Shown piece after piece: positions 1,834 to 30,831 of a stretch of 64,000 nucleotides of DNA. Numbering within the stretch: position 1 is the first letter of the stretch; every line of letters begins with the position of its first letter. The stretch lies in assembly GCA_046351455.1 (NCBI GenBank), contig JAXLYM010000003.1, forward strand, positions 152,364-216,363, read 5' to 3'. Origin of the DNA: Polyangiaceae bacterium (GTDB taxonomy: Bacteria > Myxococcota_A > Polyangia > Polyangiales > Polyangiaceae). The position numbers and the translations under genes are program-made. Under the pieces are notes generated by a model that worked only from the letters and a program-made list of their open reading frames with translations, searched no databases and had not been told where the DNA came from.

Positions 1834-2025
1834 TCAAGGCTTAAAAAAACACTCGATTGCCTACGTTTCGCCGACTCTCCCGCAACCGAAGATCCTGCAG
1901 GTCAGGAACTCGTTCGCGAGATTCGACGGTTGCTCGGTGGCGCCACTGCCGAGGCTTCGACCTCGGAGCAAACCAACAAAGGTGCTTGAGGAACGGCTCC
2001 GACGTCGCGCCAGCGAGGGTCCAGC

Positions 2026-2304
2026 TTATCGAACGTCCTTCCACGCCGGACGCACGCCGAGGATGTCAATCGACTGTTCTGTGATCATGAAGGTGATTAC
2101 GAGATTCGTCCCTGCCACTGGACGGCTCCAGATGGTCTCGAAGGGTGTCCGCAATGCCTGTTCATCCTCCGGGCCAGGGGCAGGAACACGCTCGTTTGCA
2201 AGGGCTCGCAGTACCCGCCTGACGGCTGCTTCCTCTGACGATCCTGGAGGCGCGTGAACTCGGCGCGTCGCAAAGAATATCGGCTTCAGCCGCAGGAATC
2301 GCAC
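2026..2304 (-). pseudogene. possible frameshifted 3' continuation of the small ORF at 2286..2627
   Basis: The 2026..2304 ORF overlaps the stop of the 2286..2627 ORF in another frame and translates to protein-like sequence (EEAAVRRVLRALANERVPAPGPEDEQALRTPFETIW). It lies next to the low-GC island boundary. Confidence 0.2.
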
Positions 2305-2627
2305 GCGTTCGCCTGTTCCTCAAGAATACCTTCAGCCTCGGCCGCAGAATAACCGAGCTCGGTCAGGTCCTCACGCGTAGCACAACCCTGGAGATATCGG
2401 CACTCCGCCTCCGACATGAGCCCAGCCTGGACGCACTCTTCCACCGTTCGCCCAGGCTCCGACATCGACGCTGCGTACTGCTCAGCGCTCATCCCGAGCA
2501 GCCTCAGATGCTCGGGATCCTCCCGCCCCAGCTTCTCTGCATACTGGCGCAGTAAGTCGACGTGACGGGGATCCTTGGATCCCATGCCGATCAAATCGCC
2601 GTGGTCCAAAGAGTACGCAGTCGCCAT
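2286..2627 (-). CDS. hypothetical small protein (start taken at MATAYSLDHGDL)
   Basis: ORF co-directional with and downstream of the Ser/Thr kinase gene. An internal ATG gives a 74-bp spacer from the preceding ORF. No recognisable motif. Confidence 0.35.
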   Translation of the reverse strand: MATAYSLDHGDLIGMGSKDPRHVDLLRQYAEKLGREDPEHLRLLGMSAEQYAASMSEPGRTVEECVQAGLMSEAECRYLQGCATREDLTELGYSAAEAEGILEEQANACDSCG

Positions 2628-2700
2628 GCAATGACCAATAGCACAGGATGTGCCGGAAAGCGAGCCGCCCACGGGCCCTCCAGAACACGTTCCGATGGGC

Positions 2701-3078
2701 TCAGTCCGGTGACGTCGACACCTTCGAAAGCGGCAACACCTCGTCCAGCGCACGCTTCACGTCCGGCCGATGGAGCACCTCCACGGCGACGATCCGGTCC
2801 TCAACGACATCGAGCACGATGAAGCCAGTCGCCGCGCCGAGGCGAAGATTGAAGTGGCCCTCTCCATAAGCCCCCTTCGGGCGCGGCGCCGTGTAGAAAT
2901 GCGCGCAGTCCGGATCGCCGCAACGACAACGGTCCACCACAGGCAGATCCGCTATCCGGGGCGCGAGATCCGGGCGCTCGGAGGCCGCTAAAAGCTCGGT
3001 CAGCTCGCGCGAAAACGCAGGGAACACCGAACGAATCGTCTGGACCGGACGGGCCTCGCTCACGGTACCTCCAAGCAC
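2701..3078 (-). CDS. hypothetical protein, 125 aa, Cys-rich patch CRCGDPDCAH
   Basis: ORF starting 25 bp downstream of the kinase stop on the same strand. GC3-rich codon usage typical of the host. Confidence 0.45.
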   Translation of the reverse strand: MLGGTVSEARPVQTIRSVFPAFSRELTELLAASERPDLAPRIADLPVVDRCRCGDPDCAHFYTAPRPKGAYGEGHFNLRLGAATGFIVLDVVEDRIVAVEVLHRPDVKRALDEVLPLSKVSTSPD

Positions 3079-3103
3079 GTGCTCGTGCCCCCCTCGACGC
3101 GTT

Positions 3104-6475
<3,372 letters not shown>

Positions 6476-8253: not shown

Positions 8254-9108
8254 TTACTCCAGCCAACCGGAGTTGAGGAGCACGATCCACTCGGCCTTCG
8301 TGGGGTCGAGGACGCCGACCGTCGGCGGATAGAGCAGCACGACCGCGTCGAACAGATAGCCGCCCTTCAAGAGGCCGTCGGGCAGCGCCGTCCCCCACAC
8401 CACGTCCATCGCGGCCTGTTGATCCTGCACGGGCATCACCATTCCGCCGCTGAGGTCCCAACCGCGCGTCCCCGGCGGAGCCGCGGCCGGCACGCACCCG
8501 GCGCCCAGCGTCTCCGGCGGAAGCCACGTCTTCGGGTACGTCATCTGGCCCGTACCGGACCAGACGATGCCGCCGCCGAATACGGTGAGTCCAGTGTCCG
8601 CGCTCACGACGCCGACGCCGCCGAAGTCGCCGGGCGATTCATAGAAGACGAGCTCGTCCATCGGATTGGCACCCGAGAGGAGCTGGCCATTTTGCCCGAA
8701 GCCGGTGTCCGTCTGCGAGGTCGCGCGGGCCTGCGCTTCGGTGACGGCCGCGTATCCGCCGCACACCATCTGCCAGCCTTTGATCGTCCACGTCTGGTAA
8801 TCGAGCCGGACGATCGACGTGCACGCGCTGCCGGCGCCGCCGGTCATCTTCGCGATCGCGTCGGCCGCGGCCACGCACTCGGGGGTGGTGACGGTGGTGC
8901 CGCCCGCGCCGCCGGACGTGGTGGTGACGGTGGTGCCGCCGGTCTCGCCGCCGGTGCCGCCGGTCGTGGCGCCGCCGGTGCCGGTGGTGCCGCCCGTGGA
9001 CGTGGAAGACGTGGTGTTGCCGCCCCCGTCCCCGGAGGTGACGGAGCCTCCGCAGCCGCTGATTGAAGTGAGAGCGAGCCCCAATAGGAAAAGAGAAGTG
9101 TGCTTCAT
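8254..9108 (-). CDS. lipoprotein with Gly/Thr-rich linker (start at MKHTSLFLLGLALTSISGC)
   Basis: Lipobox LTSISGC followed by a GGT-rich low-complexity linker and a globular domain. The upstream extension of the ORF is antisense-like. Confidence 0.65.
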   Translation of the reverse strand: MKHTSLFLLGLALTSISGCGGSVTSGDGGGNTTSSTSTGGTTGTGGATTGGTGGETGGTTVTTTSGGAGGTTVTTPECVAAADAIAKMTGGAGSACTSIVRLDYQTWTIKGWQMVCGGYAAVTEAQARATSQTDTGFGQNGQLLSGANPMDELVFYESPGDFGGVGVVSADTGLTVFGGGIVWSGTGQMTYPKTWLPPETLGAGCVPAAAPPGTRGWDLSGGMVMPVQDQQAAMDVVWGTALPDGLLKGGYLFDAVVLLYPPTVGVLDPTKAEWIVLLNSGWLE

Positions 9109-9139
9109 CCCCGCAGCGTAGCGCCGTTTCGGGTCGGAG

Positions 9140-11164
9140 GTGGATGCTTGTTTCGCGCGGGCCCGCGGCCGGGCATCATGCGGCATGCCCACCGACCCGC
9201 GATCGACTCCGACGCTCGTGCAGGCGGACACGCTCCTCGCGACCGAGACGCCGAATTCCCTCGTGGATGCGGGCAACGGCGCGATCCCGGACCCGAACGG
9301 CGAGCCCCGGTATGCGGGCGGCGCGCTGCTCGGACAGGGCGGCATGGGCGAGGTGCGGCTCTATCGCGATCGGCGCCTCGGGCGCGAGGTGGCGGTCAAG
9401 GTGCTGCGCGTCGAGGACGGGCCCTTTGGGGTGCGCCGCATGCGGTTCGTGCGGGAGGCGCGCGTGCAGGGCCAGCTGGAGCACCCGAGCGTCGTCCCAG
9501 TGTACGATCTCGACGAGACGCCGGAGGGCGAGGCGCGCATCACGATGAAGCGGGTGCGCGGTCACACGCTGGAGAGCGTGCTCGCGGGCCTCGCGACGGG
9601 GGACACGGCGCTCGCGCGGCGGTTCACGCGGAGGCGCCTGCTCACGGCGTTCGTGAGCGTCTGCAGGGCGCTTGAATACGCGCACACCCGGGGCGTCGTC
9701 CACCGCGACGTGAAGCCCGCGAACGTGATGCTCGGCGACTTCGGCGAGGTCCACGTCCTCGACTGGGGCATCGCGCGCGTGGCCGGCAGCAGCGGTGTCG
9801 GAGACATCGAGTCTGGAATCGACTCCTCCACGGCGGAGACGATGGAACAGCCGGCGCCGAAGGAGGAGAGCGCACCCTCCCCTGACCCGGGCGCTCCAAG
9901 GCGCACGCCCGGCTCCGACGGGACGGCGGTGGGCGCGATCCTGGGGACGCCGGCGTACATGTCGCCGGAGCAGGCCAGGGGCCGAGTCGATCTCATCGAC
10001 GCGCGGTCGGACGTGTTCGCGCTGGGAGCGATGCTGTTCGAGATATTGACGCTGACACCGATGCTGACCGGCCGGAGCGCGCACGAGCTCCTGAGCGCGG
10101 CGCGCAGCCCGAAGGAGGCGCGCAGCCCGGCCGTGGAGCACCCGGAGTCCGACGTTCCCCCCGAGCTCGACGAGGCCGTTCGCCGGGCGACCTCCCCCGA
10201 GATCGGAGATCGGTATTCCAGCGCTGGAGCCCTGGCAGAGGCCGTGGATCGTTATCTCGACGGCGACCGCGACATGGCCGCGCGCCGGGCCTTGGCCGGG
10301 GAGCAGCTGGAGCGCGCCCGCGACCTCTTGAAGTCGGGAGAAGGCCCCTCCGAACAGGCCGAGACGCGGGCGGCGGCGGTGCGCACGTTGGCCCGCGCGG
10401 TGGCGCTGGATCCGCACCACGAGGAGGCGTCGGCGATGCTCGGACAGCTCCTCGTGGAGACGCCGCGGGAGCTGCCGAAGGAGGCGGCGGCGGAGCTGTC
10501 GGCGGCGCGCGACGTGGCCAGAAAGACGGCGGCGTGGGGTGGAGTCTACCGGATCGTGGGCGTCTTCGTGCTCACGGGTCTCGGGGCGTGGATGGGAGTC
10601 CGCCGGACGGGGATTGGCATCCTCTCGGTGACGGCCTTGTTCGCCGCGTCGCTCCTCAGCATGACGTGGCTCCGCTCCGGGAGCGAGCGAGCGCGGGAGG
10701 TCATGCGCCTCGCCACGCTCGCGTCGTCGATCGTGGCGCTCACGGCGATGAGCTACGCCCTCGGCCCGGCGTTCCTGGTGCCGACGCTCGCGATGGTGAA
10801 CGGCTTCGTGCTGCTGGGGCAGGCGGATTTCCGCTCGGCGCGCGTGGTGATCGTGGCCAGCACGATCCCTGTGTGGTGGCGATTCGCGCTCGGCGTCGCG
10901 GGCGCGGCGGAGATGCCGTACGAGGTCACGCCGGATCGCGTCGTGATCCCCGCGAGCCTCGTGGGCTTTCCGCCGGTCCTCACGCTGCTCCTCTTGCTCG
11001 GCGTCAGCTTGCTCCAGGTGGCGGCGCCGCTCACGATGATGTCTTTGTTGAGAGAGCGCCTGCGAAGCCTGGAAGAGCGCCTGTTCCTGCACTCCTACCA
11101 CCTCCGCCAACTGGCCACCTCCGCACGGAGAGAGCCCCCCCTAAGCGTGCGGCGCGGCTCCTAA
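9140..11164 (+). CDS. Ser/Thr protein kinase with C-terminal multi-pass membrane domain
   Basis: Kinase motifs AVKVL, HRDVKPANVML, DWGIA, GTPAYMSPEQ. C-terminal ~200 aa is hydrophobic with several predicted TM helices. An alternative ATG lies at 9185. Confidence 0.85.
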   Translation: MDACFARARGRASCGMPTDPRSTPTLVQADTLLATETPNSLVDAGNGAIPDPNGEPRYAGGALLGQGGMGEVRLYRDRRLGREVAVKVLRVEDGPFGVRRMRFVREARVQGQLEHPSVVPVYDLDETPEGEARITMKRVRGHTLESVLAGLATGDTALARRFTRRRLLTAFVSVCRALEYAHTRGVVHRDVKPANVMLGDFGEVHVLDWGIARVAGSSGVGDIESGIDSSTAETMEQPAPKEESAPSPDPGAPRRTPGSDGTAVGAILGTPAYMSPEQARGRVDLIDARSDVFALGAMLFEILTLTPMLTGRSAHELLSAARSPKEARSPAVEHPESDVPPELDEAVRRATSPEIGDRYSSAGALAEAVDRYLDGDRDMAARRALAGEQLERARDLLKSGEGPSEQAETRAAAVRTLARAVALDPHHEEASAMLGQLLVETPRELPKEAAAELSAARDVARKTAAWGGVYRIVGVFVLTGLGAWMGVRRTGIGILSVTALFAASLLSMTWLRSGSERAREVMRLATLASSIVALTAMSYALGPAFLVPTLAMVNGFVLLGQADFRSARVVIVASTIPVWWRFALGVAGAAEMPYEVTPDRVVIPASLVGFPPVLTLLLLLGVSLLQVAAPLTMMSLLRERLRSLEERLFLHSYHLRQLATSARREPPLSVRRGS

Positions 11165-11183: not shown

Positions 11184-12074
11184 CTATTGCGCCTGCACGA
11201 GCAACGCGTGGGCCCGCAGCTCTCTCCACCTCTGCTCGACGCTCTTCATCACGTGGGAGACGTCGACGTCCGCCTTTCGGAAGCGGCCCTGAAGCTGCAG
11301 ATAACGCGTCAGCGACTCCGGCGACATCGCGGGCTCCACGTTGATCACCGTCTTCGCGCCGCCGAACACCTCGTACACCGCGAACAGGCCGCTTCGCACC
11401 GCGTGGCGCACGAGCTCGATGCCCTCCGCAGGCTCGCTCTTCCAGCCTGTCGGACACGGGGCCAGGATGTGGAGGAATCGGAATCCCTTCATGTCCAGAG
11501 CGAGCTTCATCTTGCGCATCGTGTCCTCCGGGTGCGCCAGAGAGATGGAAGCCGCATACGGGATCCGGTGCGCCGCCATAATCGCGACGATGTCCTTCTT
11601 CTCGACGTCTTTGCCGAGAGGCGTCGTCGACGTGGCCGCGCCGAACGGCGTCGCGGAGGAGCGCTGTCCGCCGGTGTTGCCGTAGATCTCGTTGTCGTAA
11701 CAGATATACAGCACATCCTCGTTGCGCTCGGCCGCCGCCGACAACGTGGCGAGGCCGATATCGTACGTGCCGCCGTCGCCGGCCCAGCAGATCACGCGCG
11801 TGTCCTCGCCGTTGAGGCGCGCCACGTGCGCGAGGCCCGTCGCCACCGCCGCCGCGGACGCGAACGTGCTCGCGACCGTCGGCGCTCCGTACGCGGAGAA
11901 CGGGAAATTGCCGGCCGTCACGATCGCGCAGCAGGCCGGAATGACCATCTGCACGGGGTGATCCCCGACAGCGCGGCTCAGCATCATGAGGCCGATGGAC
12001 ATGCCGCATCCGCCGCAGTTCGTGTTGCCGGCGCGGAGCAAGGGCTCGCAGCGGTCCGCGTCGGTCTGGGCCAT
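11184..12074 (-). CDS. porB: 2-oxoacid (pyruvate):ferredoxin oxidoreductase beta subunit, TPP-binding
   Basis: Motifs CGGCG, GDGG..DIG and NTGGQ, characteristic of the POR beta TPP/Fe-S subunit. The start at MAQTDADRCEPLL gives 296 aa. Confidence 0.85.
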   Translation of the reverse strand: MAQTDADRCEPLLRAGNTNCGGCGMSIGLMMLSRAVGDHPVQMVIPACCAIVTAGNFPFSAYGAPTVASTFASAAAVATGLAHVARLNGEDTRVICWAGDGGTYDIGLATLSAAAERNEDVLYICYDNEIYGNTGGQRSSATPFGAATSTTPLGKDVEKKDIVAIMAAHRIPYAASISLAHPEDTMRKMKLALDMKGFRFLHILAPCPTGWKSEPAEGIELVRHAVRSGLFAVYEVFGGAKTVINVEPAMSPESLTRYLQLQGRFRKADVDVSHVMKSVEQRWRELRAHALLVQAQ

Positions 12075-12127
12075 GCCGCCGATGACCGGCTCGTGCGCGT
12101 GCAAAACAGGCAAGTGGGGAGTCTGGG

Positions 12128-13291
12128 TCACGGGCCCACCTCGACGATCTGGGGCGCTCCATCGCACTCGCGGGCGACGAGATCCGCTATCACGTTGGTC
12201 ACGTGCGCCGGCCGCACATCCCCGCCGCCGACGCCCATCATGTACCCTTGAACGACCGCGTCGCGCGGCGTCGACGGGCGCACCTCGCTCCACACGATCC
12301 CGCCCATCCCGGGGCAGAGATCGCGATCGATCACGCCCACTTTGCGGCACCCCTTCAGCATCGCGCGCAGCGTCGCCTCCGGGAACGGCCGGAACATGCG
12401 GATTCGCAGACTGCCAATCTTGATACCGCGCTCGCGGGCAAGGTCGACGGCCGCGCGCACCGTGGCCGCCGTCGTGCCCATGGAGACGAGGCAAATCTCC
12501 GCGTCCTCCATCCGATAAGGCACCACCGGATCGGCGAGGTCGCGCCCGAACACCTCCTTGAAAGAGGCCTGCACCTCCTTGTACACCGCCGGCACGCCGT
12601 TCATCGCGGCCTGCAGGTGCTTTCGGTGCACCTCCGTCTCGTGCGGGTTGTCGAGCTGCCCGAGCGCGCGCGGCCGGTTCGTGAGGCGATGCGGCAAGTC
12701 GAGCGGCGGCAGGAAGCGGTCCACGAGGTCCTGCTCCGGGAGGTCCGTCAGCATCATCGTGTGCGACAGGATGAAGGCGTCCTGACAGACCATCACCGGT
12801 AGCAGCACCCTCTTGTCCTCGCCGAGGCGATACGCCGCGAGGATGGAGTCGTGCACCTCTTGATTGTCCTCGCAATAGAGCTGGATCCACCCGGAGTCGC
12901 GGAGCATCAGCGTGTCTCCGTGATCGACCCAGATGTTCCACGGCGGGCCCAGCGTGCGATTGACGGCCATCATCACGATCGGCAATCGATAGAAGGCCGC
13001 CGCGAAGACGTTCTCCGTCATGTACGCGAGCCCGTTCGACGAGCTCGCGGTGAACGAGCGGGCGCCGGCGATCGAGAACCCCATGCACACGGCCATCGCG
13101 GAGTGCTCGCTCTCCACGCGGACGACATGGCCCTTCTCGATCTGGACCTCACAGAGCTTCTCGATGCACTCCGTCTGAGGGGTGATAGGATAGACGCCGC
13201 CGCCGAAGCCGCGGCCGATGCGGTTCGCGCGCGCGGCCTTGATGGTGGCATAGGCCGTCGCGTGGTTCGCGCTCACGAGCTCCATCGTCAT
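12128..13291 (-). CDS. porA: 2-oxoacid (pyruvate):ferredoxin oxidoreductase alpha subunit
   Basis: Translation MTMELVSANHATAYATIKAARANRIGRGF...GYPITPQTE matches the POR/KOR alpha N-terminus. ATGA overlap with the upstream fusion gene. Confidence 0.85.
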   Translation of the reverse strand: MTMELVSANHATAYATIKAARANRIGRGFGGGVYPITPQTECIEKLCEVQIEKGHVVRVESEHSAMAVCMGFSIAGARSFTASSSNGLAYMTENVFAAAFYRLPIVMMAVNRTLGPPWNIWVDHGDTLMLRDSGWIQLYCEDNQEVHDSILAAYRLGEDKRVLLPVMVCQDAFILSHTMMLTDLPEQDLVDRFLPPLDLPHRLTNRPRALGQLDNPHETEVHRKHLQAAMNGVPAVYKEVQASFKEVFGRDLADPVVPYRMEDAEICLVSMGTTAATVRAAVDLARERGIKIGSLRIRMFRPFPEATLRAMLKGCRKVGVIDRDLCPGMGGIVWSEVRPSTPRDAVVQGYMMGVGGGDVRPAHVTNVIADLVARECDGAPQIVEVGP

Positions 13292-15528
13292 GACGCGCTC
13301 ATCTCCATGGCTTTCCGAGGACACTCGGTGACGCAGATGCCGCAGCCCTTGCAGTACGTGTAATCGACCGCGTACGCGAGGTCCTTGCGACGGATGATCC
13401 CCTCCGGACAATACACGAGGCACGTATCACACTGCGTGCATTCTCCACACGAGAAGCAGCGGTGCGCCTCGGCCCCGCTCAAAAGGCCCTGATTGACCTC
13501 CAGGAAGTGGCGCGCTCGCTCCTCTGGAGCCAGGACGCGCTCGGTGGTGGGCGAGGAAGGCTCGAAGTGGTCGAGTCGGATATCGGTGATCGGCACCGCC
13601 TTCGCCCGGTCCGGACGGATGAATTCCGGCACGTCGTCGCCGAGCATCCGCATCGCGCGGGTGGCGGCGCGGCGGCCGTCGCCGATCGCGTGCGTGACCG
13701 TGCCGTCGCCGGTGGAGAGATCGCCCGCGGCCAGCACCGGGAGCGCCTCTTCGCCGCGGAAGACGCGCCCGTCCTTGATCTCCCACCCGGCCGGCAACAG
13801 CGAGGTATCCGCCGACTGACCGAGCGCGAGCAGCACGGTGTCGCACGCGAGCACGCTCTCGTTCTTGGTGACGACAGGCCTCCTCCGACCGCTCTCGTCG
13901 GGCGGCCCCAATTCCACAGCAGCGAGCCGCACGCCGCGAACGCGGGTGTCGCCGACGAATCCGAGGGGGGCTTTCAGGAATTCGAACTGGACGCCTTCCT
14001 GTTCGGCCTCGTGCACCTCTTCGGCGATGGCCGGCATCTCTCCGCGGCTCCGTCGATACGCCACCGTCACGCGGGAAGCGCCCGCGCGCAGCGCGGATCG
14101 TGCGCAGTCCATCGCGGTGTTGCCGCCGCCGAGCACGACCACGTGACCCTCCATCGCGACCGTGCCCGTCATGTTGAGCCGGTGCAAGAACGAGATGCCT
14201 TGTTCCACGCCGGGGAGGTCTCCGCCTGGCCCGTCGAGCCCGCGCAGCTTCTGGAGCCCCGTCGCCAGGATCACCGCGTCGAACTGGCCCGCGAGCGACT
14301 CGATGTCACCGCGCGACAGCCGCTCTCCGAGGACGGTCTTCACGCCGAGCGACAGCACGCCTTCGATCTCGCGATCGAGCACCTCCCGCGGCAAACGGTA
14401 CGTCGGGATGCCCGTGCGCAGGACGCCGCCGAGCGCCGGCTCCGCGTCGAAGATCGTGGCGTCGTGTCCGGCCTTCGCGAGCTCGTAGGCGGCCGAGATC
14501 CCCGCGGGCCCGCCGCCCAGGATCGCCACGCGCTTCGGGCTGGGGTGCTTTCGAGAGGCCTTGTGCGCGACGGGCACCTGGTCGGACACCCATCGTTCCA
14601 GCGCGCGGATATTGACCGCGCCGTCCCACTCCGCGCGATTGCACCCGTGCATACAAGGTGCGGGACAGACTCGCCCGCACACCCCGGCGAGAGGCGTGCT
14701 CTTTCCGAGGATCTCCGCGGCGCCGACTTCGCCTTTGGTGGTGGCCTGAACGAAGCCGATGACGTCGTTCCCGGCCGGACAGAAGGCGCTGCACGGAGCG
14801 AGGTTGTGCACGTACTTGGGCAGCTGCGTGCGCCAGCTCCCGGTGCGGAGCCCTGTCGGCGCGCCCTCGACGTTCTCGATGAGCGGCATCACCGGGAGAG
14901 GCGCGCCCGGCCGGAACACGTGCCCTTCCAGATCGGCCGGCGCCAGAAGCGGTTCGCGCACCTGGACAGCCGCGTACGCCTCTTCGGCGGCGGGCAGGTT
15001 GCTTTGAAAGCCGAGGTGCGCATAGGCCTCTTCGAGCGAGGAGAACGGCAGCCCCACGGCGCGGACGAAGGCCCCGGCGATCGTCGTGTTCACGATGACG
15101 ACGGAGCGAGTGCCGATCTTGCGCCGCCGCGCGATGGCCGTCGCGTCCACGATGGCCAGCTTGAACCGCGGAAAGCGCCCTTCGAACGCGGACAGGGGCT
15201 CCGGCGTGTTGAGCAGCAGCACGCCGCCGTCGCGCAGCCCGGTGAGCACCTCGTCGGAGAGGAGCGTCGGATCCAGCACGAGGAGATGGTGTGGATCGTA
15301 CACTTTGTTACGGTTCTCGATCGGCGCGTCGCTGATGCGCGTATAGGCGCGGACGGGGGCGCCGGAGCGCTCACCGCTGTAATCGCCGAACGTCTGCACG
15401 CTCTTTCCGAGCCCCGCGTACACCGATGCGATGATCTTCGCGCACGTCACGCCCCCTTGTCCGCCGCGACCGTGGAGCCGAATCTCCAGGGCGGAGGGAG
15501 AGTGGTGGTTGTTTCCATCAGGCGTCAT
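13288..15528 (-). CDS. fusion protein: POR gamma domain, GltD-like NAD(P)H:FAD oxidoreductase domain and POR delta (2x[4Fe-4S] ferredoxin) domain
   Basis: N-terminus LHGRGGQGGVTCAKII matches the POR gamma family. The middle domain has the Cys cluster CGRVCPAPCMHGC and two dinucleotide-binding folds (VAILGGGPAG, VVVLGGGNTAMD), as in glutamate synthase small subunit. C-terminus has CFSCGECTQCDTCLVYCP and CKGCGICVTECP ferredoxin motifs. Confidence 0.85.
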   Translation of the reverse strand: MTPDGNNHHSPSALEIRLHGRGGQGGVTCAKIIASVYAGLGKSVQTFGDYSGERSGAPVRAYTRISDAPIENRNKVYDPHHLLVLDPTLLSDEVLTGLRDGGVLLLNTPEPLSAFEGRFPRFKLAIVDATAIARRRKIGTRSVVIVNTTIAGAFVRAVGLPFSSLEEAYAHLGFQSNLPAAEEAYAAVQVREPLLAPADLEGHVFRPGAPLPVMPLIENVEGAPTGLRTGSWRTQLPKYVHNLAPCSAFCPAGNDVIGFVQATTKGEVGAAEILGKSTPLAGVCGRVCPAPCMHGCNRAEWDGAVNIRALERWVSDQVPVAHKASRKHPSPKRVAILGGGPAGISAAYELAKAGHDATIFDAEPALGGVLRTGIPTYRLPREVLDREIEGVLSLGVKTVLGERLSRGDIESLAGQFDAVILATGLQKLRGLDGPGGDLPGVEQGISFLHRLNMTGTVAMEGHVVVLGGGNTAMDCARSALRAGASRVTVAYRRSRGEMPAIAEEVHEAEQEGVQFEFLKAPLGFVGDTRVRGVRLAAVELGPPDESGRRRPVVTKNESVLACDTVLLALGQSADTSLLPAGWEIKDGRVFRGEEALPVLAAGDLSTGDGTVTHAIGDGRRAATRAMRMLGDDVPEFIRPDRAKAVPITDIRLDHFEPSSPTTERVLAPEERARHFLEVNQGLLSGAEAHRCFSCGECTQCDTCLVYCPEGIIRRKDLAYAVDYTYCKGCGICVTECPRKAMEMSAS

Positions 15529-15798
15529 GAGTCCTCACCCGCGCCGGATGCAAGAAGAGTGAACACCCACCGTTTGCCCGAGATCCGCTTGATTTCGAAC
15601 CTTCTGCGCCGCGTCAGGACGCACCCTTTGCATCTCGGTGCGCGCCCGGCTCTCTCCCGCCCTCGGAGACCGCGCGAAAGGCGCGCAAATTAAGCCGGAT
15701 ACGGAGCAAGAAAGGAGTTGCGAGGGCCCCTGTCAAGGCGCCCCGACAGACGGCATCGGGGCCGCGAGATCAGACGCTCGCGGCCCCGAGAGAGGGAG

Positions 15799-16740
15799 TC
15801 AGCGCACGTCGTTCAGCGCGCGCTCGGCGACGGCGGCGACCTCTCGGATGGACTCCAGGGCGCCCAGCGCCTGCGCGTGCACGGCCGCGACCACGGTGCG
15901 ATCGGAGGCTCGGAGGAGCTGCAGGAGGCTGTCCACGTCGACCGGATCGGGCCGGACGTGCGCCGAGACCCAGTTGGGGTGGCCCGGATTGCGGATGTGG
16001 TTCCAGACCTCCGCGTCGATTTTCCCGTGGAGCAGCTTGTAGAGCCAGTAAGGCAGCGTGTTGATCACGCGGCTGTAGAAGCGGTGAGCGTACACCGCGA
16101 CCGCGAGCCCCGATTTATTGCCCGGCACAGCCAGCTTGTCGCTCTCCGCCTTGACTCCCGCCATGCGCCAGCGCTCGAACATCGGCCCGCTCGCCGCGAA
16201 GAACTGCACCTTGTCGATCGTGTGGACGTTGATGCCATTGCGCGCGTCGATCACCACGTCCTCTTTGGCGGTGCTCACGCGGTGCTCCTCGCCCCCGGGC
16301 CACGCCGACGCCGGGCTCACCGCGGAGATCGGCGTCGTGCGGAAGAAGCGGTTCACCGTGCGATCGAAGGCGAGCGTGAACACCGAAGGCGGCCCGCCGA
16401 TGTCGATCACGCTCCCATCGATCGGCACGTACCAGGCCGTCGCCACCACGTCCCCGGCGGGAGTCTTGGTGAGCTTGAAATCGAGATCGTCCGACTCGAA
16501 GACGTCGAGCATCTCCCCGTTCGCCGCGGACACGTTCCAGAAGCAGAATGCATATTGCTTCTTGTCCTTCTCGTGGATCTGCTCCGCCGTGTCGAAATAG
16601 CCCTCGACCGGAGAAGGGTTGAACGATTTGTCGAGCAAGAGGTCCCCGGGCTCTTCGATCGAGACACCATAATAGACCTCGTCACCCCCCACGTCGCCGG
16701 TGAAGGCCGGGATTGTTCGATACTGGATCTTCATTCCCAT
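15799..16740 (-). CDS. hypothetical cytoplasmic protein, 313 aa
   Basis: ORF with start set at MGMKIQYRTIPAF; the upstream part of the track ORF is GC-rich, Arg-rich garbage. No signal peptide or known motif. Confidence 0.55.
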   Translation of the reverse strand: MGMKIQYRTIPAFTGDVGGDEVYYGVSIEEPGDLLLDKSFNPSPVEGYFDTAEQIHEKDKKQYAFCFWNVSAANGEMLDVFESDDLDFKLTKTPAGDVVATAWYVPIDGSVIDIGGPPSVFTLAFDRTVNRFFRTTPISAVSPASAWPGGEEHRVSTAKEDVVIDARNGINVHTIDKVQFFAASGPMFERWRMAGVKAESDKLAVPGNKSGLAVAVYAHRFYSRVINTLPYWLYKLLHGKIDAEVWNHIRNPGHPNWVSAHVRPDPVDVDSLLQLLRASDRTVVAAVHAQALGALESIREVAAVAERALNDVR

Positions 16741-16987
16741 CGCAAAGCTCCTCTCGTCGTCGGCGGTCCTTCGCCGAGCGCGTTCGAGAGGCGGTTTCGC
16801 AACGCGCGTTCCATCATTGAAACGGCCGATTCTGCCGCGTTTCATGCCCCGCACACCCCGCCGCGTGGGACGGCGCGCGGGCGGCCCGCGGGCGCGCGCA
16901 CGAGGGGATGCGCCGGTGGACGAAATCCTCCCCTCGACGGGTGAAGGAGGCTTCCAAGACACCCCGCTTGCCTCGTAGGATGACGGC

Positions 16988-18424
16988 ATGCGCAAGATCC
17001 TTTTTGCTTCGAGCCTGTCTCTGCTGTTCGTCACGTCGGTCGCCTCCGCGGCCACCCTGCAAGTCGGCCCCGGAAAGCCGTATGCTGCGCCGTGCGCCGC
17101 GATCAAGGCGGCCGCCCCGGGCGACACCATCGAGATCGACGCGGCCGGGACGTACCAGGGAGACGTCTGCTACTGGGCCACCGACAACCTCACCATCAAA
17201 GGGGTGAACGGCCGGCCGAAGATCGACGCCGCGGGGCAAAACCAGGGCGGAAAGGCCATCTGGGTCATCGGCGGACAGAACACCTTGATCGACAACGTGG
17301 AGCTCACCGGCGCGACCGTCCCGGACCAGAACGGCGCCGGCATCCGACAAGAGGGCAAGAACCTCACCGTCAAGAACACTTACTTTCACGACAACGAGGA
17401 CGGCATCCTCGCGGGCGACGTCGACGGGAGCGAGATCACCATCGACAGCTGCGAGTTCGCGAACAACGGCTTCGGCGACGGGTATTCGCACAACCTCTAC
17501 ATCAACCACGTCGCGAAGTTCGTCTTCATCTACAACTACACGCACGACTGCAAAGAGGGCCACCTCGTCAAATCCCGCGCGGCGGAGAACTACATCCTCT
17601 ATAACCGCATCACGGAGGAGAACGGCACTGGCAGCTACGAGATCAACCTGCCGAACGGCGGCAAATCGTACGTGATCGGCAACCTGGTGCAACAGGGCCC
17701 CTCGACGCACAACCCGGCGATGCTCTCGTACGGTGAAGAGGGCATGAACGCGAAGAACCCCAGTTTGGAGCTCTTCGTCGTCAACAACACCTTCGTCAAC
17801 GACAAGGGCAGCGGCACGTTCCTCCAGATCGGCAACGCGGTGAGCACGCCCGTCGTCGTGACGAACAACATCTTCAAGGGCGGCGGCACGCTGAGCTCGC
17901 AGGCGAGCGCGGTCCTCTCCGGCAACTTCACCGACGCCGACGGGGACCCGATGCTGGTCAATGCGGCCGCCTTCGACTACCACCTTCAGGACGCCTCTCC
18001 CTGCAAGGACAAGGGCGTGGATCCGGGGATGGGCGCGGGCATGCCGCTGGACCCGGTCGCGGAGTACGTGCACCCGGAGGGCCACGAAGGCCGCATGACG
18101 GTCGGCACCATCGATATCGGCGCCTACGAGATCGGCGGCGCCACGGGCGGAGGCGGCGCCGGCGGAGGCACCGGCGCCACCACCACGGGCGGCTCCTCCG
18201 GCGGAAACGGCACCGGCGGCAACACGGCCACGGGCGGGAGCGGCGGAAACGGCACCGGCGGCTCCTCCGGCGGCAACGGCGGCAGCGGCGCCGGCAACAG
18301 CGGAGGCGACTCCGGCGGATGCGGCTGCCGCACGGCCGGCGGTACGAGCGAATCGAACATGGCAGTCCTGGCGCTCGTTGCAGGCCTCGCGATCGCCGCC
18401 CGCCGTCGCAAGAATACGCGCTGA
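16988..18424 (+). CDS. secreted right-handed beta-helix (pectate-lyase-like) protein with Gly-rich linker and MYXO-CTERM sorting signal
   Basis: Signal peptide MRKILFASSLSLLFVTSVASA. Parallel beta-helix-like repeats (NNTF, NNIF, asparagine ladders). C-terminal GGCGCRTAGG...AVLALVAGLAIAARRRKNTR matches the MYXO-CTERM signature (GC motif, TM helix, basic tail). Confidence 0.85.
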   Translation: MRKILFASSLSLLFVTSVASAATLQVGPGKPYAAPCAAIKAAAPGDTIEIDAAGTYQGDVCYWATDNLTIKGVNGRPKIDAAGQNQGGKAIWVIGGQNTLIDNVELTGATVPDQNGAGIRQEGKNLTVKNTYFHDNEDGILAGDVDGSEITIDSCEFANNGFGDGYSHNLYINHVAKFVFIYNYTHDCKEGHLVKSRAAENYILYNRITEENGTGSYEINLPNGGKSYVIGNLVQQGPSTHNPAMLSYGEEGMNAKNPSLELFVVNNTFVNDKGSGTFLQIGNAVSTPVVVTNNIFKGGGTLSSQASAVLSGNFTDADGDPMLVNAAAFDYHLQDASPCKDKGVDPGMGAGMPLDPVAEYVHPEGHEGRMTVGTIDIGAYEIGGATGGGGAGGGTGATTTGGSSGGNGTGGNTATGGSGGNGTGGSSGGNGGSGAGNSGGDSGGCGCRTAGGTSESNMAVLALVAGLAIAARRRKNTR

Positions 18425-18540: not shown

Positions 18541-20157
18541 CTACTTCGCGAGCAGGATGTTCTCGTGCTCGTGGCGGAGCTTGCTCTTCAGGAACTTGCC
18601 CGTCGACGTGCGCGGGATCTGGGCGATGAAGAGGTATTCGTCCGGGAGCCAGAACTTGGCGAACTTCGACGCGAGGTGCTCCGCGAGCTCCTCCTTCGTC
18701 ACGGAGTGGCCCTCTTTCACGACGATCGCGGCCACCGGGCGCTCGTCCCATTTGCTGTGCTTCGCGGCGAACACCGCGGCTTCGAGCACGGCCGGGTGGC
18801 TCATCAGCGCGTTCTCCAGCGCCACCGAGCTGATCCACTCACCGCCGGACTTGATGACGTCCTTCGCGCGGTCGGTGATGCGGACGTACCCCTCACTGTC
18901 GATCGTCACGACATCGCCCGTGCGGAACCAGCCGTCCTTCGTGAATTTGTCTTCGCCCTCGTCCCCCATGTACGAAGAGGCCACCCACGGGCCGCGCACC
19001 AAGAGCTCGCCCATCGATTGACCGTCCCACGGCAGCGGCTGATCGCGGTCGTCGACGTGCTTCACCTCGAAGAACGGGGCCGCGAATCCCTGCGACGCCC
19101 GGTACGCCAGGCGCTCCTCCGCGCTCTTCGTCGAGAGGTGGTGTTTCACGCGGGCCACGGTGCCGAGCGGGTTCGTCTCGGTCATTCCCCACGCGTGCAG
19201 CACCTCCAGTCCGTGGCGCTGCGAGAAGCCGTCAATCATCGTCGCGGGCGCCGCGGAGCCGCCGATCACCATCGCGCGCACGCTCGACAGGTCCCACTTC
19301 TTCGCGTCCCGATCCAGCATCGCGAGGATGCCAATCCAGATCGTCGGCACGCCGCCCGCGATCGTGATCTTCTCCGCCGCCATCAGATCGAGCAGCGAGC
19401 CGGGATCGAGGTGCGGCCCCGGAAAAACGATCTCCGAGCCGGACAGGACGGCCATGAACGGGAGCCCCCACGCGGCCGCATGAAACATCGGCACGACCGG
19501 CAACACCACATCCGCCTGCCGCACGCCGAGCTCGTCCGGGAGCGCCGCCACGAGCGCGTGCAGCACCGTCGAACGGTGGCTGTAGACAACGCCCTTCGGG
19601 TTGCCCGTGGTGCCGGACGTGTAACAGATCATCGCCGCCGCGGTCTCGTCCAGATGCGGCCAGTCGTACTCCTCCGCTTCCGCCGCGAGCAGCTCCTCGT
19701 AATCCAGGTACTTGTCGCTCACCGGGTTCGCGCTCGCCGGGTCCGGCACGACGATGACGTGCTTGATCGAAGGCACGGTGTCGGCGAACTTCTCGAAGAG
19801 CGGGAGGAGCGAGCGGTCCACGATGACCACCTTGTCCTCCGCGTGCTTCGCGATGTAGCCAATCTCGGAGGGGTGCAGGCGCAGGTTCAACGTGTGGACG
19901 ACGGCGCCCATCGCGGGGACGCCGAAATAAGCCTCCAAGTGCTCGCGGTGGTTCCAGCAGAGGGTCGCGACGCGGTCGCCGGTCTTCACGCCGAGGCGTG
20001 CGAGGGCGTTCGCGAGGCGCGCGCTGCGCTTGTAGAAGGCCTCGTACGTGCCGCGGTGGAGCGTCTTGTCCGTGCGTCGGGAGACGATCTCCACTCCTGG
20101 GTAGTACGTCTTCGCCCGCTGGAGGAGGTGAGTGACCGTGAGAGGGTAATTCATCAT
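18541..20157 (-). CDS. AMP-dependent acyl-CoA synthetase/ligase (fatty-acid-CoA ligase-like)
   Basis: AMP-binding motifs YTSGTTGNPKGV, GWGMTE and GDV..ID..GY. The start at MMNYPLTVTHLLQ gives 539 aa. Confidence 0.85.
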   Translation of the reverse strand: MMNYPLTVTHLLQRAKTYYPGVEIVSRRTDKTLHRGTYEAFYKRSARLANALARLGVKTGDRVATLCWNHREHLEAYFGVPAMGAVVHTLNLRLHPSEIGYIAKHAEDKVVIVDRSLLPLFEKFADTVPSIKHVIVVPDPASANPVSDKYLDYEELLAAEAEEYDWPHLDETAAAMICYTSGTTGNPKGVVYSHRSTVLHALVAALPDELGVRQADVVLPVVPMFHAAAWGLPFMAVLSGSEIVFPGPHLDPGSLLDLMAAEKITIAGGVPTIWIGILAMLDRDAKKWDLSSVRAMVIGGSAAPATMIDGFSQRHGLEVLHAWGMTETNPLGTVARVKHHLSTKSAEERLAYRASQGFAAPFFEVKHVDDRDQPLPWDGQSMGELLVRGPWVASSYMGDEGEDKFTKDGWFRTGDVVTIDSEGYVRITDRAKDVIKSGGEWISSVALENALMSHPAVLEAAVFAAKHSKWDERPVAAIVVKEGHSVTKEELAEHLASKFAKFWLPDEYLFIAQIPRTSTGKFLKSKLRHEHENILLAK

Positions 20158-20254
20158 GCGGGAGGCAAGCACGATCGAGGCTCCTTGTTTCTGGGGCCGA
20201 CGCCGCACGATGGCCGTGCGCCGGCGCTGTTCTGCGAGCGATACGGTCTCTGAA

Positions 20255-22879
20255 TCAGGTCTTGTTTTCGGGCGCGCACTTCGATTTCGCGGCGAGCGCG
20301 CTCTTCGCCATCTCGCGGACGAGGGGCGGCGCGTCGGCCGCCAAGAGAAGCTGAATACGGCTCGCCAGATCCGACGGGGAAAGCTCCCCGAGCGCCGACA
20401 AGGCCGCAGCCCCGAGGCGCCGATCCACGTCGGACGAGAGCGAACGGGCCCCCTGCGCCACGCGCGTGAGCAGGTCCAGACTGCCCTTGTCGCACATGGA
20501 GCCGAGCGCCGTGAGCGCCCGCGCGCGCACGTCCACGAGCTCGTCCGACGCCTCCGCGCGCGCTCGCACCGGGCCCGCGAACGCGACCGCCCGATGCGCC
20601 CCGAGGCCGTCCAGCGCCGCGCCGCGCACGTCCACGGATTTGTCGGACAGGGCACCAGCAAGGGCCTTGTCGGCGACATCGCTCTTCGGCATCGCGGACA
20701 GGGCCTCTGCGGCGCCCACGCGCACGAAGGTCCAGTCGTCGGTCCCGATTCGCGCCACGAGGGCCGTCTCCGCGCCGGCCGGCAACACCGTACCGAGGCC
20801 CGCGGCCGTCGCGAGCGCCCGGACCGCCGCCTCCCGCACGCGAACCTCGGAGTCCGCCGCGGCCGTCACCAGCGCGGGCGCGAGCTTCGGCACCTTCCCG
20901 GCCACCTCCGCCGCGCGCGTCCGCAGGTGCGGATCATCCCCTTTCGCGAGCGCGTCCCGCACCACCGACTCCGCCTCGACATCGCCCTTCGCCGCCAATT
21001 CCGCGGCCGGCGCGAGCAGCAGGTACCGAGTCCGGAAAGGGGCCTCTTTCGTCAACAGACCGAACAGCGCCTTCTTGCCGCCTTCGATCTCCGGCAAGAC
21101 AGGCCCCATGGCTCGGAGCAGATCCACCTTCGCCACGTCGCCGAGCGCCCCGAACTTCGCCGGAACGAGCCAGTCTGCGACTTCACCCTTCGCCTTCGGG
21201 CTGTTCGCGGCGCGCGCGAGGGCGGCCCGCAGATCGCGGCGCACCGGGTCCGGCGCCTTCGGGAGCGCGTCGAGGATCGCGCCGATCGCCTCCCCCGGGG
21301 CCACCAGCGCGAGCTCCTCCGCGGCCACCACCTTGATCGGATCCGCCGCCTCCCGGATCAGCTTCGAGAGCGCGGGCGCCGACGCGCGACCGCACCGGCG
21401 CAGGCGATCGCGCGCGCGCACGACGATCGGCTCCGCCGTCGGCCCGGCCATCTTCTTCCCCTTCGCGGCCGCGAGCCGATCCGCATAAAAAGGAGCCTGA
21501 TCCGAGCACGCGAGGCCGTCGACGACGTCCAGCGCGAGCGCGCGCCCGGCCTCCGTGTAGTGCTCCCACGCCGCGTTGATCGCCGTGACGGCGCGCGCGT
21601 CGCCCTTCGAGAGCATCGCGGCCGCGGCCTTCGATCTGTCGTCGCCCGTCGCCAGCGCGCCCGCGAGCGCGTCGTAGCTCATCGAATCGAGCGCGGTGTG
21701 CGCGGTGATCTCCGCGATCGTCACGCGCGGGTTGTCGACGTCCTTCGGCGTGTGCGCGTCGCCGATCACCACCGCGAGGCACGACGTGCGCACCTCCGCG
21801 GGCAGCTTCACCTCGTAACGAGCGTCCTTGTCGCCCCACGCGCTCTCGGGGATCTCCGCCGCGAAGATCTTCGAATCGGTCGCGAAATAAAGGGTCTTCG
21901 GCGCCGCGCCGCCGCTGATCTCGCCGTCGTCCTGGGGCCGGATCTTCACGGAGAGGCCGGTGATGCCGACGTCGCTCGACGCGGACATGCGCACCCACTC
22001 GCCGTGTCCGTCGCCGATCTTTCCTTCGGTCCACGCGGTCGAGAGATCGCCGTCCGTGAGCGTCGCCATCTTCTTGTCGAGCGCGCTCGACGCGGCGTTC
22101 GCGCGGAGGAGGCGCACCGCCGGGGCCGTCCACGGCGTCGTGTCGCGCGTCGCGATCACCTTCTCGGCGCCCTTGCGCTCGGCTTCGGTGAGGCTGTCCA
22201 CCATCGTGGCCGACGTCTTCGCGAGCGCCACCATGTCGGGATCGACCTCGCGCGCGCTCACGAGCACGGGCCGCCCGCACAGCGTGAGATCCGCGCGCTG
22301 CTCGCCGACGATCACGCGCGACGTCCTCCCGGGCAGAGGCTCGACGCGGATCACGTTCACCGCCTCCTCGCCTTCGAGGCCGCGCGATTGGCCGACGTAG
22401 CCGGTCCACAGCACCACGGCCTTGTCGCTCTTCGTGTACGTGATCGGGGCCGCGAGCAGCGCCGTCCACGTGGACGTCGCGCCGTCCTTGCCGTCGATCG
22501 TCGAGCTGAGCTGCAGCACGTGGCGGCCGTTCTGGAGCTTGATCTGCTGCGCGGTCCACGTCCCCTTGAGCGCCTCCGAGGGCACGTCCGGGATCTTGTA
22601 GGCGGCGCTGATGGGCGAGCCGGAGCACGAGATGGGACATCCTTGCGCGATGATGCCCTCCGGCGTCACCTCGACATGAAGCGTGTCCTGCCCGGCGCCG
22701 GACGGGACATCCACCGTCGACACGGGACGCGGCGCAGGCGGACGCGCAGGCGCCGGCGCATCCGCGCGCGATGCGCACGGCACCGCGAGCGACGCGGCGG
22801 CGAGGAGGAACGAGACGCGACGGGCGAAGGAGCGATCGGAGCGGCCCAAGGTGCGCGCATTGTGCTCGCGCGCGAGCAT
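20255..22879 (-). CDS. secreted protein with discoidin-like central segment and C-terminal HEAT (PBS-lyase-like) repeats
   Basis: Signal-like RRVSFLLAAASLAVPCASRA. Discoidin-like segment TDGDLSTAWTEG...GEWVRM. Repeated VRxAAxxALG motifs at the C-terminus. The ATG start was placed at 22879. Confidence 0.7.
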   Translation of the reverse strand: MLAREHNARTLGRSDRSFARRVSFLLAAASLAVPCASRADAPAPARPPAPRPVSTVDVPSGAGQDTLHVEVTPEGIIAQGCPISCSGSPISAAYKIPDVPSEALKGTWTAQQIKLQNGRHVLQLSSTIDGKDGATSTWTALLAAPITYTKSDKAVVLWTGYVGQSRGLEGEEAVNVIRVEPLPGRTSRVIVGEQRADLTLCGRPVLVSAREVDPDMVALAKTSATMVDSLTEAERKGAEKVIATRDTTPWTAPAVRLLRANAASSALDKKMATLTDGDLSTAWTEGKIGDGHGEWVRMSASSDVGITGLSVKIRPQDDGEISGGAAPKTLYFATDSKIFAAEIPESAWGDKDARYEVKLPAEVRTSCLAVVIGDAHTPKDVDNPRVTIAEITAHTALDSMSYDALAGALATGDDRSKAAAAMLSKGDARAVTAINAAWEHYTEAGRALALDVVDGLACSDQAPFYADRLAAAKGKKMAGPTAEPIVVRARDRLRRCGRASAPALSKLIREAADPIKVVAAEELALVAPGEAIGAILDALPKAPDPVRRDLRAALARAANSPKAKGEVADWLVPAKFGALGDVAKVDLLRAMGPVLPEIEGGKKALFGLLTKEAPFRTRYLLLAPAAELAAKGDVEAESVVRDALAKGDDPHLRTRAAEVAGKVPKLAPALVTAAADSEVRVREAAVRALATAAGLGTVLPAGAETALVARIGTDDWTFVRVGAAEALSAMPKSDVADKALAGALSDKSVDVRGAALDGLGAHRAVAFAGPVRARAEASDELVDVRARALTALGSMCDKGSLDLLTRVAQGARSLSSDVDRRLGAAALSALGELSPSDLASRIQLLLAADAPPLVREMAKSALAAKSKCAPENKT

Positions 22880-30824: not shown

Positions 30825-30831
30825 GGCCCGC

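Follow-up and report, generated by a model that had tools for sequence, protein, structure and literature searches.

A predicted pyridine nucleotide-linked 2-oxoacid oxidoreductase with a PorG–GltD–PorD fusion subunit in a Polyangiaceae metagenome-assembled genome

The window analysed in this work, that is, the whole 64-kb stretch of DNA (contig JAXLYM010000003.1, positions 152,364 to 216,363), comes from an uncultured "Polyangiaceae bacterium" metagenome-assembled genome (MAG). Three of its genes form a single minus-strand operon, namely a fusion gene (gene 1) which joins PorG, a GltD/NfnB-like flavoprotein and PorD, followed by porA and porB. This layout, which had been read from the sequence alone in an earlier note, is confirmed. 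The genes encode subunits of the 2-oxoacid:ferredoxin oxidoreductase (OFOR) type and are located in the window as follows.

13288..15528, minus strand: gene 1, PorG joined to a permuted GltD/NfnB-like flavoprotein and to PorD (746 aa, ATG start)
12128..13291, minus strand: porA, OFOR alpha subunit (387 aa; ATGA overlap with the stop of gene 1)
11184..12131, minus strand: porB, OFOR beta subunit with thiamine pyrophosphate (TPP) and one [4Fe-4S] cluster (315 aa, counted from a GTG)

The product of gene 1 is deposited in NCBI as MFO0587084.1 under the name "2-oxoacid:acceptor oxidoreductase family protein." The ATGA coupling described in the earlier note holds for gene 1 and porA, whereas the first in-frame start of porB is a GTG, which overlaps the stop of porA as GTGA. 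An ATG is present 19 codons inside porB, yet the alignments of its homologues begin at residue 13-14. The parts of gene 1 are listed below, and all conservation figures refer to an alignment of 139 full-length fused proteins with 31-95% identity.

14959..15489, minus strand: PorG part (OFOR gamma, domain III), approximately aa 14-190 (PF01558, TIGR02175; PDB 9bt4_E and 2raa_A)
14830..14958, minus strand: linker of about 40 residues, approximately aa 191-233, unconserved in the alignment
14569..14829, minus strand: GltD-type Fe-S domain, approximately aa 234-320 (PF14691; ligands C246, C250, C288, C292, C296 and E311)
13645..14538, minus strand: FAD and NAD(P)H binding domains, approximately aa 331-628 (PF07992; alignments to NfnB, StnC, GltD and dihydropyrimidine dehydrogenase [DPD])
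13441..13566, minus strand: permuted segment, aa 655-696 ("APEERARHFLEV...EAHRCFSC"), carrying C691 and C694 of the predicted distal GltD-type cluster
13291..13440, minus strand: PorD part (OFOR delta, domain V) with two [4Fe-4S] clusters, aa 697-746 (Fer4 families, TIGR02179; PDB 9bt4_G)

The division of gene 1 into PorG, a GltD-like module and PorD, as proposed in the earlier note, is borne out by both Pfam and NCBIfam, and PF01558, PF14691 and PF07992, which were named there for a domain search, were matched. The Pfam matches are POR-gamma (PF01558, aa 22-185, E 5e-27), Fer4_20 (PF14691, aa 244-318, E 1.5e-13, profile positions 30-108), Pyr_redox_2 (PF07992, aa 333-615, E 7e-24) and the Fer4 dicluster families (aa 696-741). 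In NCBIfam, the N-terminus scores 132 bits with TIGR02175 (PorC_KorC, cutoff 81) and the C-terminus 57.9 bits with TIGR02179 (PorD_KorD, cutoff 60.05), with both ferredoxin motifs intact and invariant. All motifs that had been noticed by eye were located: RGGQGG at 21-26, the Cys cluster CGRVCPAPCMHGC at 284-296, the two GxGxxG folds (GGGPAG at 338-343 and GGGNTA at 467-472) and the two CxxCxxCxxxCP motifs at 697-708 and 726-737, which supply the PorD ligands C697/700/703/707 and C726/729/732/736. The PorG part shares 42-48% identity with the separate porG genes of related operons (see below). The linker which follows it is in frame, has a coding-type GC content at third codon positions (GC3) of 0.85, and is disordered in the AlphaFold model (predicted local distance difference test [pLDDT] <50 at 199-233). 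The model as a whole has a pLDDT of 81.9 and a predicted template modelling score of 0.70.

The flavoprotein module is a circularly permuted relative of GltD/NfnB and does not follow the canonical linear order. In the HMMER alignments of P. furiosus NfnI-L and T. maritima NfnB, the pattern "ERxRxFxEV...EAxRCxxC" stands directly N-terminal to "PCxxxCP." The equivalent segment of the window protein lies at aa 655-696, C-terminal to the FAD and NADPH domains, and aligns with residues 10-45 of PfNfnI-L and 9-42 of TmNfnB, that is, with the N-terminus of the canonical proteins. Un-permuting the module in silico (aa 655-694, a linker, then 243-640) lifted its Fer4_20 match from 52.5 to 68.9 bits and extended the coverage of the profile from 30-108 to 15-108; with the segment reversed as a control, the score was 52.6. 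Both in sequence and in fold, the module is best matched by the GltD-like NADP(H) subunits of the NfnABC/StnABC complexes (9n5u_A, 9bov_A and 8oh5_C; E 1e-87 to 5e-70, Foldseek E ~1e-42), and next among the structural matches by NfnB, DPD and GltD. Thus, the glutamate-synthase-small-subunit-like module of the earlier note is indeed a relative of GltD and NfnB, but it is permuted, and its closest relative is the NADP(H) subunit of NfnABC/StnABC and not GltD proper.

All 16 cluster ligands, the FAD-binding GxGxxG and the NADPH-type GGGNTAMD...YRR...MPA are at least 98-100% conserved. The module itself has seven Cys and one Glu as ligands (C691, C694, C246, C250, C288, C292, C296 and E311), each in at least 98% of the sequences, and the eight Cys of the two CxxCxxCxxxCP motifs, GGGPAG, GGGNTAMD (467-474), Y491-R492-R493 and M498-P499-A500 are invariant or almost so. 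Mapping onto DPD and PfNfnI-B would assign C691, C694, C246 and C296 to a distal cluster and C250, C288, C292 and E311 to a cluster proximal to the FAD. C691 and C694 are equivalent to Cys42 and Cys45 of PfNfnI-B, and E311 to its Glu126, which is a site-differentiated cluster ligand (PMC12221290). In the stretch C691-x2-C694-x2-C697, C694 is only three residues from the first ferredoxin ligand of PorD, so one Cys-rich stretch carries both the cluster at the exit of the flavoprotein module and the first cluster of delta. The circular permutation thus puts the distal-cluster Cys pair beside the PorD Cys, and the two modules are stitched into one wire.

The nucleotide site carries R429, R493 and R548, which align with Arg253, Arg325 and Arg382 of PfNfnI-B. 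These three residues contact NADP(H) in PfNfnI-B (PMC12221290), and for this reason NADP(H) would be favoured over NAD(H). A different residue beside the FAD, Arg333 in the PfNfnI-B numbering, is replaced by Ile501, a residue which all of the 64 closest homologues share and which at least 90% of the family of 139 retain.

The catalytic core, on the evidence of its sequence features, is placed in the pyruvate/2-oxoisovalerate four-subunit lineage of OFORs, with alpha, beta, gamma and delta parts all recognisable. PorA matches POR_N (PF01855, E 8e-57) and PFOR_II (PF17147, E 2e-26), has the substrate/TPP motif YPITP at aa 34, and finds its best solved relative in 9bt4_B, the alpha subunit of the M. 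acetivorans pyruvate:ferredoxin oxidoreductase (PFOR). PorB matches TPP_enzyme_C (PF02775) and PDB 9bt4_C. Its TPP motif is GDG-x26-N (GDG at 118, then YDNE), and Cys39, Cys42, Cys67/68 and Cys226 provide the four Cys for one [4Fe-4S] cluster.

The fused architecture is not restricted to the window. A word-indexed search returned at least 120 clusters with the same full-length arrangement at 61-95% identity, and the named members among the matches listed belong to Myxococcota, "Deltaproteobacteria" and Planctomycetota MAGs. An exhaustive search of representatives added approximately 18 further 50%-identity clusters, reaching down to 31-34% identity. The survey of distribution which the earlier note had proposed therefore finds the fusion in many MAGs of Myxococcota and Planctomycetota. 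The order fusion-porA-porB was kept in 11 out of 11 genome loci, and the genome relatives from the species-representative scan are MAGs only. An all-against-all comparison of the open reading frames (ORFs) of 12 loci showed nothing conserved beyond the three operon genes.

The representative search also yielded many proteins of about 560-590 aa with the permuted GltD and PorD parts and without PorG. The motifs CxxCxxCxxCxxCxxxCP...CxxCxxCxxxCP were found in nearly all of 77 such representatives (~530-625 aa), and a profile built from 40 unfused GltD-PorD proteins collected at least 7,996 proteins at E<=1e-30. In all eight sampled loci the order is porG-gltD/delta-porA-porB, collinear with the window proteins, and the genes encode 181-192 aa (PorG), 384-403 aa (PorA) and 288-314 aa (PorB); in the locus L021, porB was not called but was detected by tblastn. 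Identities between the window and the unfused operons are 42-48% for gamma, 37-43% for GltD-delta, 44-48% for alpha and 44-51% for beta. These operons, whose GltD-PorD protein corresponds to NF009410 (PRK12771, "NAD(P)-binding protein"), share with the window the gene order, the permuted module and the PorD dicluster; PorG is a separate gene there, whereas in the window it is joined through the linker of ~40 residues. Consequently, the "insertion" of a GltD module between gamma and delta, as the earlier note had it, gives way to a different picture. GltD-delta is a stand-alone gene of ~585 aa between porG and porA in eight out of eight loci, in a very large OFOR family it is the delta subunit that bears the GltD-like module, and in the lineage of the window the adjacent porG has been fused onto it. 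Only this porG fusion is lineage-specific, and the two genes are more often found unfused.

The fused forms are scattered among the unfused ones in a tree of the GltD-delta core, which hints that the gamma fusion may have arisen repeatedly; the tree is a crude neighbour-joining one with long branches and no support values. Seven proteins (P0243, P0235, P0244, P0159, P0232, P0153 and P0259) have a GltD-PorD unit with N-terminal extensions of ~340-600 aa and total lengths of 850-1170 aa. In L021, a single MAG, a KorA/KorB-type pair (462-3082) stands ahead of the porG-gltD/delta-porA-(porB) cluster, and an NfnA-like gene (DHODB_Fe-S_bind) with a canonical Fer4_20/Pyr_redox_2 gene (8340-9764) comes after it, so that three different Fe-S/flavin redox modules are clustered together.

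The GltD-delta unit is also found next to OFORs of other types. On plasmid 2 of Aromatoleum aromaticum EbN1 (L023, 4890-9594), a tblastn search of plasmids located the permuted GltD-delta protein EBN1_RS21825 (595 aa), with the layout CxxxCP, GRVC..C..C, GGGNTAMD, then EAERCLNC and then two ferredoxin motifs. Its gene overlaps that of a korA-type alpha subunit (622 aa), a korB-type beta subunit (351 aa) comes next, and acyl-CoA dehydrogenase genes are adjacent. The database names are "FAD-dependent oxidoreductase" for EBN1_RS21825 and "2-oxoacid:acceptor oxidoreductase subunit alpha" for the alpha subunit. This trio probably represents the NADP+-dependent 2-oxoglutarate oxidoreductase (KGOR) type, as a plasmid-borne copy or a paralogue. 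In the plasmids of Phenylobacterium zucineum (L024, 4983-11272) and Methylovirgula sp. HY1 (L025, 4905-11231), an "NAD(P)-binding protein" of 546-556 aa is encoded directly before nifJ, the gene of the single-chain PFOR. A gene for a "dihydroorotate dehydrogenase-like protein" follows nifJ in both plasmids, and the P. zucineum GltD-PorD-type protein lacks YRR and GGGNTA. The arrangement suggests an NAD(P)-linked PFOR or else a DPD-like trio. Since GltD-delta accompanies por, kor-type and nifJ genes, it is a general adaptor, seen with four-subunit, two-subunit and single-chain OFORs.

Phenylobacterium and Methylovirgula are presumably aerobic. The earlier note had regarded such an operon as unexpected in an aerobic myxobacterium, a view without foundation here: the source is an uncultured MAG, and the GltD-delta unit beside nifJ in these presumed aerobes indicates that its occurrence in aerobic bacteria is not exceptional.

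Taken together, the operon probably encodes a 2-oxoacid oxidoreductase with a heterotrimeric protomer, of the pyruvate/2-oxoisovalerate four-subunit lineage, which is hard-wired to a pyridine nucleotide. The earlier note had already deduced a pyridine nucleotide link from the module, and the intact motifs support it, as the residues for binding FAD and NAD(P)H are present in the middle domain on alignment. The function would most likely be the ferredoxin-independent, non-bifurcating oxidoreduction of a 2-oxoacid with NADP+. We infer the following path, in the oxidative direction. The 2-oxoacid and CoA would undergo oxidative decarboxylation at the TPP site of PorA/PorB, and the electrons would exit singly through the PorB [4Fe-4S] cluster to the two clusters of the PorD part. 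From there they would pass to the two GltD-type clusters, distal and then proximal, and on to the FAD, which would gather two electrons and deliver a hydride to NADP+ (less likely to NAD+). The flavin would act as a plain converter between two-electron and one-electron steps with no bifurcating site, and the PorG part at the N-terminus would only set stoichiometry and assembly. With 2-oxoacid/acyl-CoA couples at about -500 mV and NADP+/NADPH at -320 mV, the reduction of NADP+ is strongly favourable.

Several points weigh against this interpretation. The profile NF009410/PRK12771 spans aa 219-744 of gene 1 end to end (profile positions 23-563 of 566), with the same architecture and synteny as the members, but at 483.5 bits the match stays below the curated cutoff of 516. 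The C-terminal ferredoxin part, through which the electrons would pass, is modelled at low confidence (pLDDT 53-60). The substrate is ambiguous, since the best match of alpha is the PorA_Arch model and that of beta a VorB-type model, with all NCBIfam equivalog models under their cutoffs (PorA_Arch 365 vs 550, VorB-type 315 vs 405, PorB 287 vs 405). The relatives from EbN1 and Phenylobacterium lack YRR, and this motif is therefore no safe predictor of the nucleotide preference. An external ferredoxin may be reduced in parallel, as is said to be the case for the KGOR of Azoarcus evansii. Finally, the literature search found no biochemical study of either the fused or the unfused form of the POR/VOR type.

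Among the rival explanations, an NAD+-linked enzyme would be a soluble producer of NADH like the pyruvate and branched-chain 2-oxoacid dehydrogenases, with an outcome similar to that of phenylglyoxylate:NAD+ oxidoreductase (Pad). Pad-type models do match gamma, alpha and beta, though more weakly, and the nucleotide motif varies among the relatives. However, YRR and the three NADP(H)-contacting Arg are conserved as in the NADPH-specific NfnB, and the A. evansii enzyme, the sole biochemically studied OFOR with a GltD-like subunit, reportedly did not reduce NAD+. The Pad FAD subunit is outside the best 25 NCBIfam matches and therefore not closely GltD-like. An NAD+ linkage is considered unlikely. 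That the fused ORF is an artefact of assembly or a frameshift joining porG and gltD-delta could be thought of, given that the source is a MAG and that the unfused pair is commoner. This is practically excluded by the independent fused homologues: at least 138 other full-length fused proteins come from independent assemblies, one of them 95% identical, with 11 genome loci, and the linker is in frame with the coding-type GC3 mentioned above.

A bifurcating or confurcating enzyme, in which the FAD would act like the NfnB flavin with two acceptors and a partner encoded elsewhere, would draw on the homology of the module to NfnB, whose FAD bifurcates, and on the retention of the Glu ligand E311 and of the NfnB-type "extended N-terminus" segment, the latter permuted. 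It is nevertheless highly improbable, because Arg333 is replaced by the conserved Ile501, because no FNR-like/DHODB_Fe-S_bind (nfnA-like) gene is present in the 64-kb window or conserved in the 11 related loci, and because the oxidation of a 2-oxoacid by NADP+ is strongly exergonic and needs no coupling. In addition, the part upstream of the module is PorG and not nfnA, and in structure the module is closest to the NADP(H) subunits of NfnABC/StnABC, complexes in which bifurcation is assigned to the NuoF-like subunit. Slightly less credible still is a synthase in which NADPH would drive electrons backward into the OFOR for the reductive carboxylation of acyl-CoA. OFOR reactions are reversible in principle, and the GltD-like modules of GltS, DPD and Fnor usually feed NADPH electrons into Fe-S chains. 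On the other hand, established thermodynamics puts the reaction, if it has no coupling site, uphill by ~180 mV per electron pair, neither the window nor the related loci were found to encode a bifurcation partner, and there are no carbon-fixation genes in the neighbourhood.

The 2-oxoacid:NADP+ oxidoreductase proposed here may extend beyond the window. We give about an even chance to the window protein being the fused representative of a very large class, with thousands of sequences, of POR/VOR-type enzymes which carry the permuted GltD-delta subunit and act as ferredoxin-independent 2-oxoacid:NADP+ oxidoreductases. If so, acyl-CoA would be formed from pyruvate or branched-chain 2-oxoacids with a yield of NADPH, along a route which runs beside the lipoamide dehydrogenase complexes and has gone unrecognised in many bacteria, including members of Myxococcota, Planctomycetota, Chloroflexota and KSB1. 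A widespread OFOR group would then bypass ferredoxin and make NADPH directly, which would alter the redox balances rebuilt from genomes and MAGs. Such genes are now annotated as a "pyruvate:ferredoxin oxidoreductase" and, as if it had nothing to do with this enzyme, an "NAD(P)-binding protein" or a "glutamate synthase small subunit." With a ferredoxin attached to it residue-to-residue, the permuted GltD is a compact natural wiring between a one-electron Fe-S enzyme and a two-electron nicotinamide carrier, a design that could serve engineering. The gamma fusion adds little past a fixed stoichiometry.

Upstream of gene 1, the following region was read in the sequence.

15529..15798, minus strand: intergenic region 5' of gene 1 (270 bp)

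A GAGGA ribosome-binding site is located ~5 nt ahead of the ATG. The promoter and terminator scan reported neither a sigma-70 consensus promoter nor an intrinsic terminator upstream of gene 1. Directly past the stop of the upstream gene, at 15770-15800 on the minus strand, there is a GC-rich hairpin, an inverted repeat (GGGGCCGCGAG-N8-CTCGCGGCCCC) which lacks a T-tract and was therefore unreported by the terminator scan. The tRNA and Rfam scans gave no matches.

Around the operon the window encodes protein kinases, an AMP-binding enzyme and a HEAT/TPR protein, together with proteins that match no family, and among these neighbours there is no clue to the substrate. Two long ORFs that are read from opposite strands and overlap in part, at 15799-17130 (minus, 443 aa) and 16988-18424 (plus, 478 aa), have coding-type GC3 and show no Pfam match and no conservation in the related loci; they lie between the operon and the AMP-binding enzyme gene (18541-20679). 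Ser/Thr kinases are encoded at 3104-6475 and 9140-11164, adjacent SpoVR-like and DUF444 (YeaH-like) genes at 29268-31941 (minus) and a PAAR-motif protein at 40601-41620, and the window also contains a ClpB-like ATPase, MutL and a sigma-70 factor. Such genes are ordinary for a Myxococcota-like genome and unrelated to the operon. The first 2000 positions have a GC content of 0.54, compared with ~0.69 elsewhere, and include an ORF (94-1833, plus, 579 aa) with a Walker-A motif (GRRGAGKT) and faint AAA_16/NPHP3_N-type matches, whose product may be a horizontally acquired STAND-like NTPase.

In comparison with known systems, the NADP(H) subunits of T. sibiricus NfnABC, C. saccharolyticus Nfn-ABC and S. 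ovata StnABC are permuted in the same way, EAxRCxxCG lying C-terminal to the flavoprotein domain. They differ in that a formate-dehydrogenase-like domain follows the module, that a Lys occupies the position of the Glu ligand of the window protein, and that they belong to Bfu-type bifurcating complexes with no OFOR partner. NfnB, GltD, the N-terminal part of DPD and the monofunctional Cac_0764-type Fnor share with the window protein Fer4_20 and Pyr_redox_2, two [4Fe-4S] clusters, one of them Glu/Gln-ligated, FAD and NADPH; their order is linear, they are free-standing or have other partners, and none is coupled to an OFOR. The Fnor class and the window module are alike in lacking Arg333 and an nfnA neighbour. 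A 2021 review of GltD-like modules names only GltS, DPD, Nfn and AegA.

On the OFOR side, the archaeal four-subunit PFOR 9bt4 is the best solved relative of the alpha, beta, gamma and delta parts. The delta chain of the Moorella thermoacetica oxalate oxidoreductase (5c4i_B) combines gamma and delta in one chain and matches both ends of gene 1, as does NF045790. Both enzymes are ferredoxin-dependent and have no flavoprotein module. The phenylglyoxylate:NAD+ oxidoreductase PadEFGHI of Azoarcus/Thauera is an OFOR of the POR type in which an additional FAD subunit reduces the pyridine nucleotide, and its PadE, PadG and PadI models match gamma, alpha and beta in NCBIfam more weakly than the Por/Vor models. 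The Pad FAD subunit is a separate protein, absent among the best 25 NCBIfam matches of the window proteins. PadF, with ~100 aa, is too small for this subunit and can be taken as the delta ferredoxin. R. palustris AadN and class II benzoyl-CoA reductase were also considered and set aside as different enzymes.

The eukaryotic pyruvate:NADP+ oxidoreductase (PNO) of Euglena and Cryptosporidium is a single-chain PFOR fused to an FMN/FAD domain like that of cytochrome P450 reductase. The comparison with PNO, drawn in the earlier note as an analogue built from different parts, stands as a functional likeness only: the predicted outcome is the same, with OFOR electrons reaching NADP+ through a fused flavoprotein. 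Pfam detected no flavodoxin-like or FNR-type domain in the operon proteins, and the catalytic subunits are separate, unlike in PNO.

The family and the principle are already known or catalogued. No paper was found in the literature on the PorG-GltD-PorD fusion or on a GltD-PorD subunit in POR/VOR operons. To the extent that the literature could be searched, it holds no description of the gamma-GltD-delta fusion, of the POR/VOR-type version or of the circular permutation. The earlier note had called such enzymes poorly characterised biochemically, which agrees with the outcome of the literature search for the POR/VOR type, but a precedent exists in the KGOR of A. evansii. A 2023 phylogeny of GltD-like proteins grouped a subunit of this 2-oxoglutarate:NADP+ oxidoreductase with NsoC of T. 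litoralis. The EbN1 trio has as its core KorA, in which gamma is already fused to alpha, and KorB, as opposed to PorA (387 aa), PorB (315 aa) and a gamma of the separate type in the window. EBN1_RS21825 is 30% identical to the window module, with no YRR and a variant FAD motif, and shares its permuted order. The A. evansii KGOR, which Ebenau-Jehle, Boll and Fuchs are said to have described in 2003, reportedly has three subunits of 63, 62 and 37 kDa with FAD, TPP and Fe-S, reduces NADP+ and not NAD+, and matches three adjacent ORFs of EbN1. Like the enzyme proposed for the window, it is an OFOR which reduces NADP+ by means of a GltD-like FAD/Fe-S subunit, and by this analogy it would serve as the biochemical precedent for the proposed mechanism.

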